Shown here in pieces: positions 38,393-64,000 of a DNA stretch of 64,000 nucleotides. Location: the IMG/VR virus record IMGVR_UViG_3300001472_000003, positions 64,001 to 128,000 of that record; one strand, written 5' to 3'. The stretch comes from a virus. The notes beneath the pieces are model-generated. The model worked only from the letters and a program-made list of their open reading frames with translations. It was not told where the DNA came from and ran no database searches. Position 1 is the first letter of the stretch, and the number at the start of each line of letters is the position of its first letter. A program made the position numbers and the translations under genes.

Positions 38393-38783
38393 CAGATACT
38401 GTCTTTTTTATAAGTTTTTGTAGATCATTTGTACTCCCAACAAACAAATTATTGTTTATTGTTTTAGGTCCTTTTATACCATCTAAATCTTTTTTACGTT
38501 TTTGTAACTCCAATAGATCTTTATTGGCATCTGATAATGCTCTTACTAAAACAGCTGCAACCTCGTATGTTCTTGGGTGTTGACTTTGTTGTGCTAATTC
38601 AACAATACCGTTTAATGCATCTTGACCTCTTTCAATAATGCCATATAAATTTTCTCTTGCATATTGAAAATCATCATCAGATGAATTGGTAGATTGTTTT
38701 AACTTAGAACTTGCATCGTATAATTCAGTTTTAACATTATCTATATCATCAAGGTTTAATGCATCACTAATTTCTTTAGTCAT
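38385..38783 (-). CDS. 16: Terminase small subunit gp16
   Basis: HPRTYEV, NNLFVGST. Confidence 0.93.
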   Translation of the reverse strand: MTKEISDALNLDDIDNVKTELYDASSKLKQSTNSSDDDFQYARENLYGIIERGQDALNGIVELAQQSQHPRTYEVAAVLVRALSDANKDLLELQKRKKDLDGIKGPKTINNNLFVGSTNDLQKLIKKTVSDE

Positions 38784-39615
38784 TATCTATATCCGTTCTT
38801 GCAATTATTATGCCTGAATTTGCTTCTATATCAATTAATGATCTATCTACAGTTATTGAAGCATTTGTTGTTGCATTATTATTTGCATCCATTCCTGGTG
38901 TTATCACAATACGGTCTCCGTCAATTGGATTTGCATTTGATGTATTGAATGCACTTGTAGTATTTATATCTTCAAATATATTAGTATTAGCAAGTGTAAT
39001 TATATTAGCATTAGATGAAATAGGTCCAAATAAATAACCTTTAACACTAAAATCTAGTTTATGGACAAGAGCTCTTCTTGTCTCAAAATCACCTTCATAT
39101 TGGTCATCAGTAGTAAATTGATTTAATATAACTGGTATATCAAAGGGATAGTCAAGATCTTCCATTAATTTCATAGATACTGTGTATTCTGGTGTAAAGA
39201 ATGGTATTATTTGTTCTATTATTCTTATTCCATCTTCTTCATTTTTTACCATAATACTTAATTCAAAGCTTATATCAAATGGTGTTGGGGTATAAACAGA
39301 TTTTATTTTGTTTATAGATCCTGGTGTAGCTTTTGCAAATTTGCGGGTTGGATTTAATCTGCGCGAAGCATCATATTGAAATCCTGTCATTTCAAAAGAC
39401 ATTCTTGGTAATTGTATTGCTACTTTTCTTCTAAGAGTTGGATCTTCCTGTGTTCTAACTAGGTATTTTTGAGATGGGCCATAATTAACAGGCACTCTTA
39501 ATGTTTGTTTAACTATACCATTTTGTTCTCTGTCTATCTCAATATCATTAAATAATGTGCCGAACATTACTATATACTTACGCAGGATACCATTATAGAA
39601 TTTTTGACCTAACAT
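38776..39615 (-). CDS. 15: Tail sheath stabilizer gp15
   Basis: FGTLFND, LPRMSFE, EQIIPFF. Confidence 0.93.
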   Translation of the reverse strand: MLGQKFYNGILRKYIVMFGTLFNDIEIDREQNGIVKQTLRVPVNYGPSQKYLVRTQEDPTLRRKVAIQLPRMSFEMTGFQYDASRRLNPTRKFAKATPGSINKIKSVYTPTPFDISFELSIMVKNEEDGIRIIEQIIPFFTPEYTVSMKLMEDLDYPFDIPVILNQFTTDDQYEGDFETRRALVHKLDFSVKGYLFGPISSNANIITLANTNIFEDINTTSAFNTSNANPIDGDRIVITPGMDANNNATTNASITVDRSLIDIEANSGIIIARTDIDND

Positions 39616-40340
39616 TATTTAATTTCTCCGAACGGATTGGATTCACTAAAATCTATTATAGCTGCACCATCTAATTCAAACTCAGATGATCTATCTGTTT
39701 TATCTGTATCTCTTAGAGAAAATCCATCGTTAATAATTTCAACACCACTTTCGGTTACTAATTGTGTATTGGCTTCTGTGGTTATTGATATTTTATCTAA
39801 TGCATATGGAATAGATAATTTTTCTTCAATACCATCTATATCTCTAATGCCAGTGTTGAGTTGCTCATTGCTATACTCAAACAATTCACAAACAATATCA
39901 TACGTTTGAAGGGAACCCATTTGATAAAATATAGATTCGTGCTCAACATATTTAACTTCATATAATTTTTGGTTCATATTAAAGTGAATAAGATCACCTT
40001 CATGGGGTAAATTTTGAAATGTTGTCTGAGATATATCTTGCTCAAATCGTCTTTTGGCTATAGTAAATGTTATTCTATCTCTATATTCTAAACCAAATCT
40101 ACTAACAAAATCACCTTCGCCCTCAAACCCTTCGACATTCTTTATATAAACCTCAATTAAATATGTATCTTCAAACTTAGTTAATGTATCCTCATTAAAA
40201 ACATCATCTAAATCTACTACTGCTCTCGGTAAATAATAAACTTCATGACCATACATTTTAATTGATTCAATAATTAAATCTTCAATTAAAGTCTGTTCTG
40301 ATTGTGCATTAAAGTTATTAAAAAATACATTGGTAGGCAT
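39615..40340 (-). CDS. 14: Neck protein gp14
   Basis: YYLPR, EGDLI, DFSESNPFG. Confidence 0.93.
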   Translation of the reverse strand: MPTNVFFNNFNAQSEQTLIEDLIIESIKMYGHEVYYLPRAVVDLDDVFNEDTLTKFEDTYLIEVYIKNVEGFEGEGDFVSRFGLEYRDRITFTIAKRRFEQDISQTTFQNLPHEGDLIHFNMNQKLYEVKYVEHESIFYQMGSLQTYDIVCELFEYSNEQLNTGIRDIDGIEEKLSIPYALDKISITTEANTQLVTESGVEIINDGFSLRDTDKTDRSSEFELDGAAIIDFSESNPFGEIK

Positions 40341-58929: not shown

Positions 58930-59274
58930 TTAGCTTCCTCTTGTTACACCGGGTGTGACAGTTACTAAACCTTCTAATACACGTGTTGCATTATTACTAT
59001 TTAACGTATTATAAACCTCAACATCATATACATATCTTCCAGCAGGAACGATATTAGTTTCTGCTGATGTCATACTTAATTCCATGATACCGCCGGTTGG
59101 ATTTGTAATATTCGTTGATATTATATGAAATATGCTAGATGAATGTGTTTTTCTAAAATGACATGCTGATGTATGATCTGTTAAATTAAAAATATCTCCG
59201 CTCATGTCTGTAATATTTACTACGATATTAAATTTACTTCCTTGATCTATAATAAGATTAGCTTTTGCTGCCAT
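58930..59274 (-). CDS. Virion structural protein (baseplate/fibre-associated Ig-like)
   Basis: ANLIIDQG, GRYVYDVE, RVLEG..TVTPGVT; late promoter upstream. Confidence 0.75.
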   Translation of the reverse strand: MAAKANLIIDQGSKFNIVVNITDMSGDIFNLTDHTSACHFRKTHSSSIFHIISTNITNPTGGIMELSMTSAETNIVPAGRYVYDVEVYNTLNSNNATRVLEGLVTVTPGVTRGS

Positions 59275-59305: not shown

Positions 59306-59314
59306 ATATTTATA
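59306..59314 (-). promoter_or_regulatory. T4-type late promoter TATAAATA
   Basis: Match upstream of 58930..59274. Confidence 0.7.
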
Positions 59315-59405: not shown

Positions 59406-60089
59406 ATGAATTTTGTTTGTGTTAATTTTGGCAACATGTACCATAATGCATATGTAGACGCTCTTTATTATATGATATTTATGCGTAATAAAATAAACAG
59501 CTTTACATGTATTACTGATAGAAAAAGAAATATTAGAAAAGAGATTAACCAAATAATAATTAGTGATGACGAATACGAAGGCGCATGGAATAAACTTTAT
59601 TGCTTTCATGATATAGATTTGCCGAATGAATTTGTATTATTGGATTTAGATATTGTATTGCAATCTAAATTTAAATTTAATGAACTAAAAGAAATAATTG
59701 ATAACAATAAGTTATTATTTGTTAATGCAGATTGGGCTATAGATAGTAGACCTTATCAGCCTACCCAAATAAATTCATCTTTACTGTATATTAATAAAAA
59801 TTTAAAATCCTATAATAAAATTAGAAAATCTATAGACAAGGGAGATTGGTATCCATATGCTACTATGGATAGATATTTATTTAATATACTTAATAAAAAA
59901 GAAATAGGTTATTTTGATTCATTAAAAATATATTCATATATGGATAATGAATATATGGAAAAAAATTATGATGTATGTCTTTTAAATAAATTTGATGGCA
60001 AAATATTCGATTATATTATAAGTAGTAACTGGATATTTAAATACTACCCAATTCATCTTTCATATCCATCCACATATCATATTGATTAA
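59406..60089 (+). CDS. Glycosyltransferase-like protein (GT-A, DxD)
   Basis: CVNFGxxY...YV, CITD, WNKL, LLDLDIV, INSS; only convincing plus-strand gene. Confidence 0.7.
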   Translation: MNFVCVNFGNMYHNAYVDALYYMIFMRNKINSFTCITDRKRNIRKEINQIIISDDEYEGAWNKLYCFHDIDLPNEFVLLDLDIVLQSKFKFNELKEIIDNNKLLFVNADWAIDSRPYQPTQINSSLLYINKNLKSYNKIRKSIDKGDWYPYATMDRYLFNILNKKEIGYFDSLKIYSYMDNEYMEKNYDVCLLNKFDGKIFDYIISSNWIFKYYPIHLSYPSTYHID

Positions 60090-60699
60090 TAATATATGAT
60101 ATAGTTATTCTGCTGCCAGATTTATTAGCCGCACAATGCCAAACTTTTTTATTGCCCTCATCATGACCACCAAAATACCCAGTTTTTACATTCCAACCAA
60201 TACTATCTTTATGTATAATATATTTTTTAGCACTTAAATCATATTCTTCAAAATATCCACCACCACAATCACTATATGTAAATAATACATTATATCCTCT
60301 AGCATTAGCATTATGATGCCATCCTATATATCCATTTACGGGGTAATATGTTAGCAAAGAATTGTTAGATGCACCTAATTCCGATGTCATATTATTAGCA
60401 AGACTCATGACTTTATCTCTATTATTTAATTTATGAGCACCTACACTTGTTCTATAGTCTATAAGTAATGAACATTCAGGAAAGCCTTCGTGCTTATTGC
60501 CATTCATAAGCCATTGATGGTAATCATAACTTGTTCCACTTGTAATATCCATTCCATCATTATACTCTTTACCATCTCTACCTAATCTTTCATCATATGC
60601 TATATCATATAATGTTTTAGTGTCTTCAGATAAAATATTATCTTTAATATCATTTAAAATATGTAATATACTTTTATTTTTAATCTCTATCTTGTCCAT
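60037..60699 (-). CDS. Cupin / 2OG-Fe(II) oxygenase-like protein
   Basis: YPVNGYIGWHHN...WHCA...RITISY (HxN..H..R layout). Confidence 0.6.
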   Translation of the reverse strand: MDKIEIKNKSILHILNDIKDNILSEDTKTLYDIAYDERLGRDGKEYNDGMDITSGTSYDYHQWLMNGNKHEGFPECSLLIDYRTSVGAHKLNNRDKVMSLANNMTSELGASNNSLLTYYPVNGYIGWHHNANARGYNVLFTYSDCGGGYFEEYDLSAKKYIIHKDSIGWNVKTGYFGGHDEGNKKVWHCAANKSGSRITISYIINQYDMWMDMKDELGSI

Positions 60700-61414
60700 C
60701 TATCCACTCTTTCTTTAAAGTATGATGCATTATAACTATATCAGATTTAACTTCAGATTTTTTATATGTATTAACATAATTCCATCTTGCATCGTCTTCC
60801 ATTATATCTATTTTCATTTTATGATTTTTTATATTTAAAAGGAACCACCATGCGAATTGGTCCCATTGTTTAACACTATTTAAATATTCAGGATATTTAA
60901 TAGTAAATTCTTTAGATGATTGATACTTAAATTGTTTATACCAAATATCTAAAAATTTTAAAATATGGGGCCTTTTCCAATACCCGAATATACCACAATG
61001 ATGAATCATTTTTGCATTGTCATTTTTTTCTTTTGTTAAAAATACTTCTGCTGCAGCATATTTACGAATTGAGGTAGTACATATATCTGCTTCATCCGAT
61101 AATTGATCAAAGATTAAGGATATATCTTCATGCATAATTTCCGTATCTGCATCTATATAAAATGTTTTATCATATGGAGTCTTAGATAACATGTACAGTT
61201 TAGTACGAATATTATATGGACAATCAGTTATAATAGAATCAAATACACCAGAGTTATTGGCTATTGTCCTCCATCGTTCCTCAGTATATAAAGTAATATT
61301 TGCTTCAGGGTAATAATCTTTTAAAGATTCTGCAGAATATATTGCACTATGAAGATATGGTATTTTGCACGTAGCAGCATACATAAACCCATTTTTATTT
61401 TTTATTTCGTTCAT
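60680..61414 (-). CDS. Nucleotide-diphospho-sugar transferase (GT8-like)
   Basis: TPYDKTFYIDADT, WDQF, RWN, IMHH. Confidence 0.75.
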   Translation of the reverse strand: MNEIKNKNGFMYAATCKIPYLHSAIYSAESLKDYYPEANITLYTEERWRTIANNSGVFDSIITDCPYNIRTKLYMLSKTPYDKTFYIDADTEIMHEDISLIFDQLSDEADICTTSIRKYAAAEVFLTKEKNDNAKMIHHCGIFGYWKRPHILKFLDIWYKQFKYQSSKEFTIKYPEYLNSVKQWDQFAWWFLLNIKNHKMKIDIMEDDARWNYVNTYKKSEVKSDIVIMHHTLKKEWIDGQDRD

Positions 61415-61808
61415 TAATTATACCAACAATTGTGTTTACTAAAACTTCCATTTTATTTTTGGATTTTCGTATAGAACGTTTAAATTCTTTGTTGGTTGTA
61501 TTTTTTACTTCATCCATCTCAAATGCTTCAAGTTTTGCCATAAACAATTCTTCACCATCTATTCTTGCTTTATTTTCAACATCACGTTGATTTTTTCTGC
61601 TTTGCATTTCTCTAAATATGCGCAAAGATTCATCAGTATTTTTATCTATTTGTTGGATTGTATATTGTGATATAAGTGATTTATAATCACTATTTCTTTC
61701 ATCTCTAGGTATAATAATTTTTACCTTATTACCATTATCATCAACACTATTAACTTCTATTTGTTTTTTTTCTTCTGGTATTAACCATTTGGGTTCTATA
61801 TATCTCAT
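61395..61808 (-). CDS. Hypothetical protein
   Basis: LFMAKLEAFE...IRKSK motif; co-transcribed with repeat protein and GT. Confidence 0.7.
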   Translation of the reverse strand: MRYIEPKWLIPEEKKQIEVNSVDDNGNKVKIIIPRDERNSDYKSLISQYTIQQIDKNTDESLRIFREMQSRKNQRDVENKARIDGEELFMAKLEAFEMDEVKNTTNKEFKRSIRKSKNKMEVLVNTIVGIINERNKK

Positions 61809-61811
61809 AAT

Positions 61812-63215
61812 CTATGCTATCCTCAACCATAATGCAATTGTTGTAATACTGTTTTTAGAACTTGATACAGTATCACTTGTGAAATTACCTGTATAATTAC
61901 CACTATATTCTGCTGTAAAATCCCTAGAATATGACCCAGTAAACATACGTGTATACTCTCTATTATATATGCCTGTAAAACTACCAGTATATTGCCTATT
62001 ATAAGATCCTGTATATTGCCTATTATACGATCCAGTATACTGTCTATTATATGTTCCCGCATAATAGCCAATATATGATCCTACATATGAACCTGTAAAT
62101 CCAACTGGGCCAACTCTAGTATAACTTCCAGTATAATAATTGTAATGATAGCTAGGCCTTCCATTAAAATATGAAGTACCTACATGACGGGCATATGTTC
62201 CGGTAAAATATCCAGTTATTTGTTGTGATGTATAAGTTCCAGTATAACTTCCAGAATAACTCCCCGAAAAATTTGTTGTTAATGCACCTGTATATTGTCC
62301 TGTATATTGGCCGGTATATTGGCCACTATAACTTGCTGTAAAATCTCTATTATATACTCCTGTATATTGTCCAGTAAAGCTTCCTTGATATTGACCAGTA
62401 AATAATCCAGTATATTGTCTATTATATGTTCCTGTAAATGATCCTATGTATGTATTTGCCGCAACTTGTTGCCTTGTATCAATAAATGTATCACCTACTT
62501 GAACCCATGTTCCAGTTGTTGGTGGTATTGTGGCTAACGAATATCTACCCACTTCTGTAGATGCAATTCTATTTCTATATCTATCTGTTAATGTTTCTAT
62601 TTCAACATCAGTCATTTCTTGCATTGTGCCATCTATACCAAGCTTTAATGGTCTTATTACTGTTGGTAAAGAATCATTTGTTTTTTTCCAAAGATAAGAT
62701 GTGTTAGAAGAACTACCCCCACTACCTCCAAATGTATCTGTTAATGATGCAACTGATACCCAAGTGCCTGAAAATATTGTAGCGGGAGTTGCTGTAGAAA
62801 GATAATATTGACTTATAGATGGTGTTGATGTATTAGCTAAATTAGATGAAATATAATTCATAATATTGTTATCTAAATTATTACTAGACATTGGTCTAGG
62901 TTTTTTATTATCTAATTCTAAAGGACTAACAGTTGTTTCTGATACTGAGACAAGATTCTGTGATAAAGTTGTAGTAGTTGTAGTTATTTGACCATTTGCT
63001 GGATGTGTGCCAATAGACTCCACTCTTGCAGTATCTGAAAAATAACCTATTGTAGTACCAACACCTGCTATATTTAATGCACCTGTACTATTATCAGACT
63101 CTAATGATACTTTTCTTAATACTAAGTGTGTGATATAATCCATATCTGTATTAGACATTTCTTGAATATCAACTGAAGTATTTCCAGTTCGTATTAATTT
63201 TAAAGGGTTGCCCAT
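61812..63215 (-). CDS. Putative fibre-tip protein with (Y/F)xGx tetrad repeats
   Basis: Three PLxL...QEM repeats followed by about 42 aromatic tetrads; directly downstream of a fibre gene. Confidence 0.7.
   Translation of the reverse strand: MGNPLKLIRTGNTSVDIQEMSNTDMDYITHLVLRKVSLESDNSTGALNIAGVGTTIGYFSDTARVESIGTHPANGQITTTTTTLSQNLVSVSETTVSPLELDNKKPRPMSSNNLDNNIMNYISSNLANTSTPSISQYYLSTATPATIFSGTWVSVASLTDTFGGSGGSSSNTSYLWKKTNDSLPTVIRPLKLGIDGTMQEMTDVEIETLTDRYRNRIASTEVGRYSLATIPPTTGTWVQVGDTFIDTRQQVAANTYIGSFTGTYNRQYTGLFTGQYQGSFTGQYTGVYNRDFTASYSGQYTGQYTGQYTGALTTNFSGSYSGSYTGTYTSQQITGYFTGTYARHVGTSYFNGRPSYHYNYYTGSYTRVGPVGFTGSYVGSYIGYYAGTYNRQYTGSYNRQYTGSYNRQYTGSFTGIYNREYTRMFTGSYSRDFTAEYSGNYTGNFTSDTVSSSKNSITTIALWLRIA
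61872..62450 (-). repeat. 12/24-nt coding tandem repeats (YTGQ, YTGSYNRQ)
   Basis: e.g. cctgtatattgt/cctgtatattgg/ccggtatattgg and three 24-nt units near 61984-62060. Confidence 0.85.
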
Positions 63216-63227
63216 TATATATTTTCC

Positions 63228-64000
63228 TTATTGTGGCCAAGCCACATCGCCATTTGCATATAAAATTTCTAATTTAGCACCAGTACTATCAACAATACGC
63301 GCTGCAGTGCTTAAAACAATATTAGCATTAAAATTGGTTACCGCATCAAATGTGTCAATAGTCTCTTTTAATGTAGTTCCACTTGATAATCCTATTTCTA
63401 ATGTATTATTACTATTTTTCCAATCAAGAGAAGCAACACCAGCTACAGAAACATCAGATACACTTGTTATTCTGCCTTTATTATCTACTGTAAATTGAGG
63501 CACAGCAGATGCACTACCATATGTTCCTGCAACAACTCCCGAAGTAGCTAACCTTGCTGCAACTAAAGTACCAGAAGATATATTTGATGCATTTCTATAA
63601 TATGAACCTTCTTGACCATCTAATAAATCTGCATCTAATCCACTAGTAGCACCGTCATTATTCTCATGCCATATTTGATAAGAATGTGTAGCATTAGAAC
63701 TAATTACTAATCCACTATTACCAATACCAGTATTAGCTACTCTTATATTTATTGGCGTAGTACTATCTGCATCTGTGTCAGCAATATGGACAGTACCATT
63801 ACCAGAAATATGTAAAGTATTAGCTTGAACGTTCCATCTTTTAGTAGATGATCCTAATGATATTGCATTTGTAGTAGGAATAACATTGTTAGCAAAATAA
63901 CCTTTTGTATCTATAATATCTCCATTATTATCACCTAAAACTGTGTTTCCGGCAACAGAAAAATCACTTGTTACAGAAATTTCTTCGATAGTGGCATTGG
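63228..64000 (-). CDS. Tail fibre protein, 3' part (start beyond window end)
   Basis: Frame open from window edge by manual translation; WHENNDGATSGLDADLLDGQEGSYY and AGTYGSA..VPQFTVDNKGRIT fibre motifs. Confidence 0.8.
   Translation of the reverse strand, partial: NATIEEISVTSDFSVAGNTVLGDNNGDIIDTKGYFANNVIPTTNAISLGSSTKRWNVQANTLHISGNGTVHIADTDADSTTPINIRVANTGIGNSGLVISSNATHSYQIWHENNDGATSGLDADLLDGQEGSYYRNASNISSGTLVAARLATSGVVAGTYGSASAVPQFTVDNKGRITSVSDVSVAGVASLDWKNSNNTLEIGLSSGTTLKETIDTFDAVTNFNANIVLSTAARIVDSTGAKLEILYANGDVAWPQ

Follow-up and report, generated by a model that had tools for sequence, protein, structure and literature searches.

What do a glycosyltransferase and an oxygenase-fold protein act on when a phage encodes them directly behind its fibre genes? 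The locus that raises this question lies in IMG/VR virus record IMGVR_UViG_3300001472_000003, a complete genome of 149.5 kb with direct terminal repeats and ~30% G+C, of which bases 64001-128000 (64,000 nt, referred to here as the window) were analysed. Close to the end of the window, a tail-fibre gene is followed by genes for a repeat protein (rep467), a small protein (p137), a glycogenin-like glycosyltransferase (GTa244) and a cupin-type protein with an oxygenase fold (cup220), faced from the opposite strand by the gene of a second putative glycosyltransferase (GTb227). The first four form one conserved unit in the host recognition cluster (HRC) of a T4-like marine myovirus, and this unit is real, widespread and uncharacterised. 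As the best single explanation we tentatively favour a fibre-tailoring system, probably expressed late, that modifies or assembles a fibre protein, and we put its likelihood a little short of even.

A tightly coupled block behind a tail-fibre gene

The genes of the locus and the repeat region within the first of them are arranged as follows, in window coordinates:

61812-63215, minus strand: rep467, repeat protein of 467 amino acids
61872-62450, minus strand: tetrad region of rep467 (amino acids 256-448), with 37 in-register [YF][TSN][GR]x tetrads in three runs
61395-61808, minus strand: p137, protein of 137 amino acids
60680-61414, minus strand: GTa244, glycosyltransferase-like protein of 244 amino acids
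60037-60699, minus strand: cup220, oxygenase-fold protein of 220 amino acids
59406-60089, plus strand: GTb227, putative second glycosyltransferase of 227 amino acids, convergent with cup220

A preliminary description of this DNA had proposed five genes in a tightly coupled run after a tail-fibre gene, and open reading frames (ORFs) were indeed found at these positions. Gaps of 12 nt (fibre gene to rep467) and 3 nt (rep467 to p137) give way to overlaps of 20 nt both between p137 and GTa244 and between GTa244 and cup220, and the 3' end of GTb227 overlaps that of cup220 by 53 nt. Baseplate and fibre genes lie on the same strand as the four genes of the block, between which we found neither a sigma-70-like site scoring above 10/12 nor a terminator.

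Conservation of the block across phage genomes

Co-occurrence of the four families across phage genomes had been set beforehand as a check on the proposed system. IMG/VR was therefore searched with three independent seeds (profiles of GTa, of the N-domain of the repeat protein and of the cupin), and ~200 loci were judged; the four families were syntenic in every judgeable locus. The GTa seed matched 362 loci, the best 80 of which all carried one or more repeat proteins, p137, GTa and the cupin in this order wherever the contig reaches. Among the 363 stretches matched by the repeat-protein seed, which give the size of this family in IMG/VR, were 61 new loci, with p137, GTa and the cupin present in 59/59 of those with at least 2.3 kb downstream. 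The cupin seed gave 207 matches and 78 new loci, with GTa directly upstream in 77; the remaining one had no upstream DNA. Since many loci are near-duplicates, they were dereplicated at 70% GTa identity, resulting in 17 lineages, 15 with the complete block and two cut by contig ends. Identity of GTa to the window copy drops to 28-45% among relatives, and the flanks of the block vary, with paralogue number, inserted genes and downstream genes all differing between lineages.

Among 50,697 GenBank phage records, 893 of which have a related capsid protein, GTa and the cupin were found only in C48C1 (unclassified Kyanoviridae), where a 3347-aa tetrad protein is followed by a p137 homologue, GTa, the cupin and then an LtfC-like gene. 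Neither the module region (blastn) nor the N-domain of rep467 (tblastn) had a match among GenBank phages. A pattern-limited scan of 185,579 cellular species genomes for the cupin returned a single match, an 11.4-kb contig (L231 = PCAT01000109.1) from a Balneola sp. metagenome-assembled genome; this contig carries the whole block of repeat protein, p137, GTa and cupin, and is almost certainly phage DNA binned into the assembly.

The repeat protein and its small partner

The repeat protein had been described as rich in Tyr, Thr, Ser and Arg. Enrichment in the first three was upheld (T 16%, S 12%, G 11%, Y 9%), whereas Arg accounts for only ~5% and it is Gly that is the defining partner of Tyr. 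Residues 251-450 consist of 18% Y, 17% T, 16% G and 10.5% S, and the whole protein contains 26 [YF]xGx[YF] motifs, against 0.83 +/- 0.91 expected from 5000 shuffles (maximum 6). The in-register tetrads fall into runs at amino acids 256-311, 316-331 and 373-448, and the DNA of this region contains tandem repeats of 12, 24 and 48 nt. Across 4067 tetrads of the family, the consensus in percent is [Y67/F33][T36 S29 A15 V8][G81][N25 T19 A14 S12]. Preceding the tetrads is a conserved N-domain (amino acids 1-250) of three units of ~85 aa with the pattern RPLK..LQEMSD.EI...G.Y.L...P..GTW, in which Tyr137, Thr151 and Trp152 are invariant and Pro144, Pro232 and Lys178 nearly so. The C-terminal tail is also conserved in the family as T.ST[IV].LW[IV]R[TI]A, and rep467 itself ends in ...IALWLRIA.

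No Pfam, PHROG, NCBIfam or PDB family matched rep467, nor did any PHROG match its N-domain alone, and in the Atlas the protein falls into unnamed viral clusters only. Loci carry one to three paralogues in tandem, with two or three in many phages, ranging from 327 to 2091 aa with up to 299 tetrads; both upper values belong to a giant protein at L016:1274-7546. The 3347-aa protein of C48C1 (CDS0201; L009:1-4458) alternates tetrad blocks with globular segments, and aligns to rep467 from residue 188 onward and in the repeats only. Its position, its repeat architecture and the adjoining fibre and chaperone genes together suggest that rep467 is a fibre-like virion protein. To judge from its primary structure, it would have a stalk of variable length made of four-residue [Tyr/Phe]-x-Gly-x repeats, an architecture that appears not to have been described previously. 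The preliminary terms 'needle' and fibre 'tip' were dropped, as nothing marks rep467 as either.

The second protein, p137, always lies between the repeat protein and GTa. It contains 29 K/R and 25 D/E residues, its composition alone suggests a helical protein, and its C-terminal motif KLEAFE..E[IV]KN..N[KR] is conserved. Searches of Pfam, PHROG, NCBIfam and PDB sequences were blank, in keeping with its preliminary listing as a protein of unknown kind. It is a candidate chaperone or adaptor for rep467.

GTa244 and cup220

Three fold assignments had been made from the DNA letters alone (a GT8-like transferase, a cupin oxygenase fold and a second glycosyltransferase). All three proved sound, the first two through AlphaFold2 (AF2) models and the third, that of GTb227, through a match to phrog_1962. 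For GTa244, an AF2 model built on the family alignment (predicted local distance difference test, pLDDT, 92.7) has a GT-A fold with glycogenin as the top structural match (Z 17.3, root-mean-square deviation 4.3 over 195 aa, 18% identity; Foldseek E 4e-9), followed by further structural matches (VIA) to LARGE1 (Z 16.8), GlyE (15.9), UGGT (15.8) and the Skp1 transferase Gat1 (15.7). Its DxD motif, D88 and D90, is invariant in 28 sequences. Sequence searches gave no Pfam match at E <= 0.1, PF01501 included, and none in NCBIfam or PDB; GT8 membership thus rests on the fold, because the PF01501 sequence model fails. The model therefore predicts an active-looking, GT8-like glycosyltransferase and not a sequence-defined member of GT8.

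The AF2 model of cup220 (pLDDT 81.9) contains a double-stranded beta-helix (DSBH) of eight strands over residues 112-204. Its structural matches (VIA) include PHD2 (Z 11.1), PiuC (10.3), prolyl 4-hydroxylase (P4H, 9.9), the Dictyostelium Skp1 prolyl hydroxylase (9.7) and vCPH (9.5), as well as FTO and AlkB-type nucleic-acid oxygenases at Z 9-9.7. The HxN...H triad proposed for this cupin oxygenase is a constant of the family: the motif W127-H128-x-N130...H188...R197 is invariant in 47/47 unique locus sequences and in 150/150 wider relatives, the latter being the best 150 of 789 representative clusters in a library of 1.84 billion proteins. R197 follows H188 by 9 residues, and by this spacing it may correspond to Arg383 of PHD2, which binds the C5 carboxylate of 2-oxoglutarate (2OG). 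A further acidic residue, D165, is invariant or nearly so across the family (147/149) and, judged by its conservation, could be a substitute carboxylate for the HxN motif.

Whether cup220 is an oxygenase in the usual sense is a separate matter. An hhalign comparison with a canonical phage 2OG oxygenase, a PF13640 protein, places HHN on HHD, a hint given by a local alignment of 16 columns with probability 2% and E 0.022; the His-His and His-Arg spacings, which would match those of PHD2, also put the Asn at the position of the canonical Asp. No Pfam model (PF13640, PF03171 and others), NCBIfam or PDB sequence matched cup220, and no report of Asn as a ligand in a 2OG oxygenase came up in a search of the literature. 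Because the defining HxD/E triad fails, we have not filed cup220 as a canonical 2OG oxygenase: its model has the 2OG-oxygenase fold, yet the protein is not classifiable as a canonical member of that group.

Homologues of cup220 also occur outside the block, at L004:5863-6642, L007:5589-6236 and L010:5995-6648 (C48C1 CDS0017). The cupin homologue at G003:C1:61093-61683, in the complete 163.9-kb phage record of L015, has one in-frame TAG within the match; recoding, a pseudogene or an error of sequencing may account for it.

The second glycosyltransferase and the genome setting

Further features of the window bear on the facing gene and on the setting of the block:

63228-63998, minus strand: C-terminal 256 amino acids of a 784-aa tail-fibre protein, whose gene extends beyond the window end (full ORF, L091 229-2583)
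59339-59367, plus strand: sigma-70-type promoter TTGACT-17-TATAAT, TG-extended, before GTb227; 11/12, the best site in the region
59307-59314, minus strand: T4-type late-promoter-like box TATAAATA, its end 32 nt before the start of p114
58930-59274, minus strand: p114, LtfC-like protein (L-shaped tail-fibre assembly; phrog_1084 2.6e-24, phrog_3304 1e-18), opening the next fibre operon
39615-40340: gp13/14 neck protein (T4 neck)
38776-39615: gp15

GTb227 matches the glycosyltransferase family phrog_1962 at 5.7e-6, and its nearest named Atlas clusters carry PF03407 or PF01501 (GT77- or GT8-type families); Pfam, NCBIfam and PDB sequence searches were blank. We predict a GT-A-like transferase using nucleoside diphosphate (NDP)-sugars. 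Of 81 unique loci, 65 (80%) have a GTb-like gene no more than 5 kb downstream, on the opposite strand in 63 of those 65. Sigma-70-type promoters such as the one before GTb227 are early in T4-type phages, so that GTb227 is probably early and may be expressed apart from the four-gene block. The site is also present in L012, a relative at 63% identity, and was found in no lineage other than L012 and that of the window; the idea that GTb is an early gene in general was accordingly rejected. Of the proposal that a second glycosyltransferase takes part in the tailoring system, what stands is a GT-A-like gene facing the module; its 80% association and its own sigma-70-type promoter tell against full membership.

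Downstream of the module, a p114-type gene is present in 60/81 loci. The late-promoter-like motif TATAAATA is not enriched in the window overall. In a large freshwater lineage, six ORFs of 231-274 aa lie on the reverse strand between the cupin and the LtfC-like gene (L115:12587-16949). Weak matches mark no fewer than three of them as GTb-like or GT8-like, which suggests an array of GT-A paralogues in tandem.

The genome is that of a T4-like myovirus, and its window encodes a major head protein, portal, sheath, terminase, gp13/14 neck protein and gp15. The nearest relatives of the capsid protein are those of Stenotrophomonas phage DLP_6 (74%), OM43 phage Melnitz (70%) and Pelagibacter phages Mosig and HTVC008M (65%). 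Upstream of the module and beyond the window end lie a 2063-aa DUF4815 (VrlC-like) protein, a 62-aa ORF and the 784-aa fibre, for which PHROG gave matches of 1e-11 to 1e-12 to the tail-fibre families phrog_25747 and phrog_5342. The DUF4815 protein, two genes upstream, is called VrlC-like solely from that domain and its size. The module thus sits between this giant protein and the gp13/14 neck gene, near the VrlC end of the HRC. The ~62-aa ORF between the VrlC-like and fibre genes (L091:2584-2786 = G000 129584-129786) encodes many charged residues and contains a CTAAATA motif ~130 nt upstream of the start of the 784-aa fibre.

Insertions around the block were found in L005, L006 and L008, comprising genes for GT25, a methyltransferase, radical S-adenosylmethionine (SAM)/SPASM, GT2 and canonical 2OG-oxygenase proteins. 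The expanded core of these more distant lineages (L005:1656-9251, L006:1-7842, L008:2940-9461) includes an unknown 267-aa protein, a well-conserved radical SAM/SPASM enzyme (68-75% identity) and a reverse-strand GT2; L006 additionally has a canonical 2OG-FeII_Oxy_3 oxygenase. The genes for the gp13/14 neck protein and gp15 follow directly downstream of this core in L006 and L008. In the repeat proteins of these lineages the repeats are of the Y-x-G-P/A type, not YTGx/YNRx. The radical SAM enzyme matched no specific maturase family, and the idea of a SPASM maturase acting on the tetrads, as in ribosomally synthesised and post-translationally modified peptides, was rejected for the present module, the gene being confined to these three lineages and absent from the window.

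Proposed mechanism and competing explanations

Tailoring of a fibre protein is favoured because the link of the enzymes to a structural gene is strict and translationally coupled, and is kept over deep divergence in a region of high turnover. Such a link is predicted by a dedicated enzyme-substrate or assembly relation, and not by mobile host-modifying cargo. The nearest solved structures of both enzymes are, moreover, mostly protein-modifying (glycogenin, GlyE of the PsrP adhesin, Skp1 Gat1 and UGGT; PHD2, P4H enzymes of bacteria and viruses, and the Skp1 prolyl hydroxylase of Dictyostelium), although fold neighbours do not determine the substrates of GTa244 or cup220. The folds, motifs, synteny and operon layout were observed here; which substrate is modified, by what chemistry and in which order, and that the product enters the virion, we infer as follows. 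As rep467 is produced, p137 would assist its assembly as a chaperone or adaptor, and GTa244 and cup220 would act on it, with cup220 oxidising a side chain to which a sugar from a host NDP-sugar is then added; alternatively, the sugar may be transferred directly to Tyr, Thr or Ser. The outcome would be a decorated fibre. GTb227 would serve as a separately transcribed accessory transferase that extends the glycan or has another target. As the enzymes are conserved while the repeats differ between lineages, it may, speculatively, be the conserved N-domain that holds the target sites, and not every tetrad.

In its most specific form the proposal is that T4-like phages of a widespread group, uncultured and from marine and fresh waters, covalently modify a fibre dedicated to receptor binding or a side fibre, with a Tyr/Gly tetrad ribbon as its stalk. 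They would do so with a new HxN subfamily of DSBH proteins and a glycogenin-like transferase, by Tyr-, hydroxyproline- or Thr-linked glycosylation or by oxidative cross-linking. In this full detail we consider it doubtful. The earlier idea of a phage-encoded decoration pathway for a fibre survives in its co-occurrence and its folds, with the role of rep467 as substrate inferred; its likeness to collagen does not, and nothing points to a place at the fibre tip.

Several observations weigh against a tailoring system dedicated to the fibre. In the repeats themselves, tetrad position 2 is Ala or Val in 23% of cases, so per-tetrad O-glycosylation is not demanded by the sequence. In every cup220 member, Asn replaces the iron-binding Asp of the HxD/E...H facial triad, which makes oxygenase activity uncertain. 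The lipopolysaccharide (LPS) transferase LgtC is among the Foldseek matches of GTa244, and the GT8 family also includes LPS enzymes. The cup220 family is not bound exclusively to the repeat protein, given its homologues outside the module: those in L004 and L007 stand in an auxiliary-gene region with a helicase, a phrog 'ferrochelatase', a 2OG oxygenase and an RfaE-like gene, no GTa was found in the 98-kb (59% complete) record that carries such a module-free homologue, and the extra homologue of C48C1 (CDS0017) lies beside head genes, flanked by UvsY and by a 'tail tube' gene that follows the capsid gene. GTb, with 80% association and a promoter of its own, may not belong to the four-gene pathway. 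Synteny within a single broad phage lineage can also be block inheritance. Finally, the glycosyltransferases in the HRCs of pelagimyophages have been read as modifiers of the O-chain of host LPS (PMC7029224).

In a less likely explanation, GTa, the oxygenase-like protein and GTb alter host LPS or another surface glycan during infection, for instance so that superinfection is blocked or progeny are kept from re-adsorbing to lysed cells, and are merely housed in the fibre cluster. Beyond the published reading of GT8-rich pelagimyophage HRCs (PMC7029224; PMC12379486), it draws on the presence of LgtC-type enzymes in GT8, on the RfaE-like heptose gene near the cupin homologues of L004 and L007, and on the strong sigma-70-type, probably early, promoter of GTb. 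It accounts poorly for a GTa and a cupin that are translationally coupled to a structural gene and inseparable in ~200 loci, with GTa identity down to 28%, in an otherwise hypervariable region; no cellular cupin homologue came from the one pattern-limited genome scan, and late expression would be ill-suited to exclusion functions. Somewhat more unlikely still is a unit that assembles the fibre with no covalent decoration of rep467, in which the HxN protein would be no oxygenase but, for instance, a module for binding or chaperoning or an enzyme of another chemistry, and the glycosyltransferase acts on another virion protein or makes a small glycoconjugate. The replacement of the canonical Asp ligand by Asn throughout the cup220 family, the failure of every Pfam 2OG model to match and the lack of enzymatic features in p137 would fit this explanation, as would the dedicated chaperones that often follow fibre genes (gp38 and gp57A in T4, and the adjoining LtfC-like p114). 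Against it, H128, H188 and R197 are invariant at PHD2-like spacing and D165 is a possible ligand, a pattern of conservation that would argue for a working active site, and the DxD of GTa is likewise invariant.

Modification of DNA, with the oxygenase hydroxylating a base and the glycosyltransferases glycosylating it as in base J or phage systems pairing TET with glycosyltransferases, is very improbable. FTO and AlkB-type oxygenases do appear among the fold matches of cup220 (Z 9-9.7) and DNA glycosylation is common among phage glycosyltransferases, but protein hydroxylases are the best fold matches, the genes lie in a structural operon and not among replication genes, and the link to a fibre-like protein is strict. 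Neither a ThyA-type hydroxymethylase nor a canonical PF13640 oxygenase was found in the complete 149.5-kb genome; a Tet_JBP search of the genome was also blank, which says little, as the same model matched 0/14 control genomes.

If tailoring of the fibre is correct, these phages enzymatically tune the surface chemistry of a host-recognition fibre, and host range would depend on a further layer that predictions from sequence overlook. As a phage-encoded pathway that oxidises and then glycosylates a tail fibre it would be the first, and through it adsorption could change without any change in the fibre gene. It would also add abundant aquatic myoviruses to the mycobacteriophages and giant viruses as a group with virus-encoded virion glycosylation. 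It also offers a concrete alternative to the assumption that HRC glycosyltransferases modify host LPS. Whatever the substrate, the locus reveals a DSBH family that is uncharacterised, very large (789 representative clusters) and invariant in its His-x-Asn motif, a fibre architecture of up to ~300 Tyr/Gly tetrads, and a four-gene block that is intact within an otherwise hypervariable genome island.

Comparison with known systems

The needle that forms the tip of the T4 long tail fibre, gp37, has HxH iron sites and is served by the chaperones gp38 and gp57A. By analogy, the locus would share with it a fibre gene followed by a small dedicated helper gene and a repetitive beta-type stalk; unlike gp37, rep467 has Tyr/Gly tetrads instead of HxH iron sites and is accompanied by attached enzymes, and the two proteins have no sequence similarity.

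In the Skp1 pathway of Dictyostelium and Toxoplasma, the prolyl 4-hydroxylase PhyA acts before a series of glycosyltransferases that ends with the glycogenin-like GT8 enzyme Gat1. As is proposed for the phage block, a PHD-type DSBH hydroxylase and a glycogenin-like GT8 serve one cytoplasmic protein, and the structures 6t8m and 6mw5 lie near cup220 (Z 9.7) and GTa244 (Z 15.7). The phage enzyme differs in having HxN and not HxD, GT60-type or other intermediate transferases are missing, the candidate substrate is a repeat fibre and not a subunit of the Skp1-cullin-F-box (SCF) complex, there is no homology to the phage enzymes at the sequence level, and a substrate Pro is only hypothetical in the phage system.

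Collagen-type systems (LH3/PLOD3; mimivirus L230; PBCV-1 vCPH) likewise combine a repetitive structural protein with a 2OG oxygenase and a glycosyltransferase, and provide viral precedents. The phage repeats have a period of four ([YF]xGx) rather than Gly-X-Y, the enzymes are separate and not fused, and the triad is HxN. The collagen-like sequence of hydroxylation and glycosylation first suggested for this locus founders on substrate chemistry, because neither Lys nor Pro, by which collagen substrates are defined, is among the common tetrad residues ([YF][TSA]G[NTAS]). The GT8 enzymes of serine-rich-repeat adhesins, such as GlyE for PsrP of S. pneumoniae (Z 15.9 to GTa244), are also encoded beside a long repeat adhesin, which they decorate; that system, unlike the phage block, is bacterial, coupled to secretion and dependent on GtfA/B priming, and has no oxygenase.

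Among viruses, mycobacteriophage glycosyltransferases are reported to decorate the phages' own capsid and the C-termini of their tail-tube proteins (Freeman et al. 2023, as cited in PMC12619734). This and the capsid glycosylation of chloroviruses resemble the present proposal in that virus-encoded transferases act on the virus's own structural proteins, and the mycobacteriophage system differs from it in its unrelated hosts and in reportedly having no oxygenase and no repeat fibre. The HRCs of pelagimyophages and cyanomyophages (Zaragoza-Solas et al. 2020, PMC7029224) occupy the same genomic place and are rich in fibres and GT8-type transferases, with radical SAM cassettes in some relatives of the block described here. 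They were described as non-syntenic, with their glycosyltransferases assigned to modification of the host O-chain, and that description (PMC7029224) contains neither an invariant block of repeat protein, p137, GT8-like transferase and HxN oxygenase nor the repeat protein family. The preliminary view of the system as uncharacterised thus holds for the module and for the idea of virion decoration, and needs amending for the gene neighbourhood, which had been described as the HRC (PMC7029224). Ranked by analogy, the Skp1 pathway would be the closest likeness to the block. Collagen-type systems, with their viral representatives, come second, GT8 enzymes of serine-rich-repeat adhesins third and mycobacteriophage virion glycosylation fourth.

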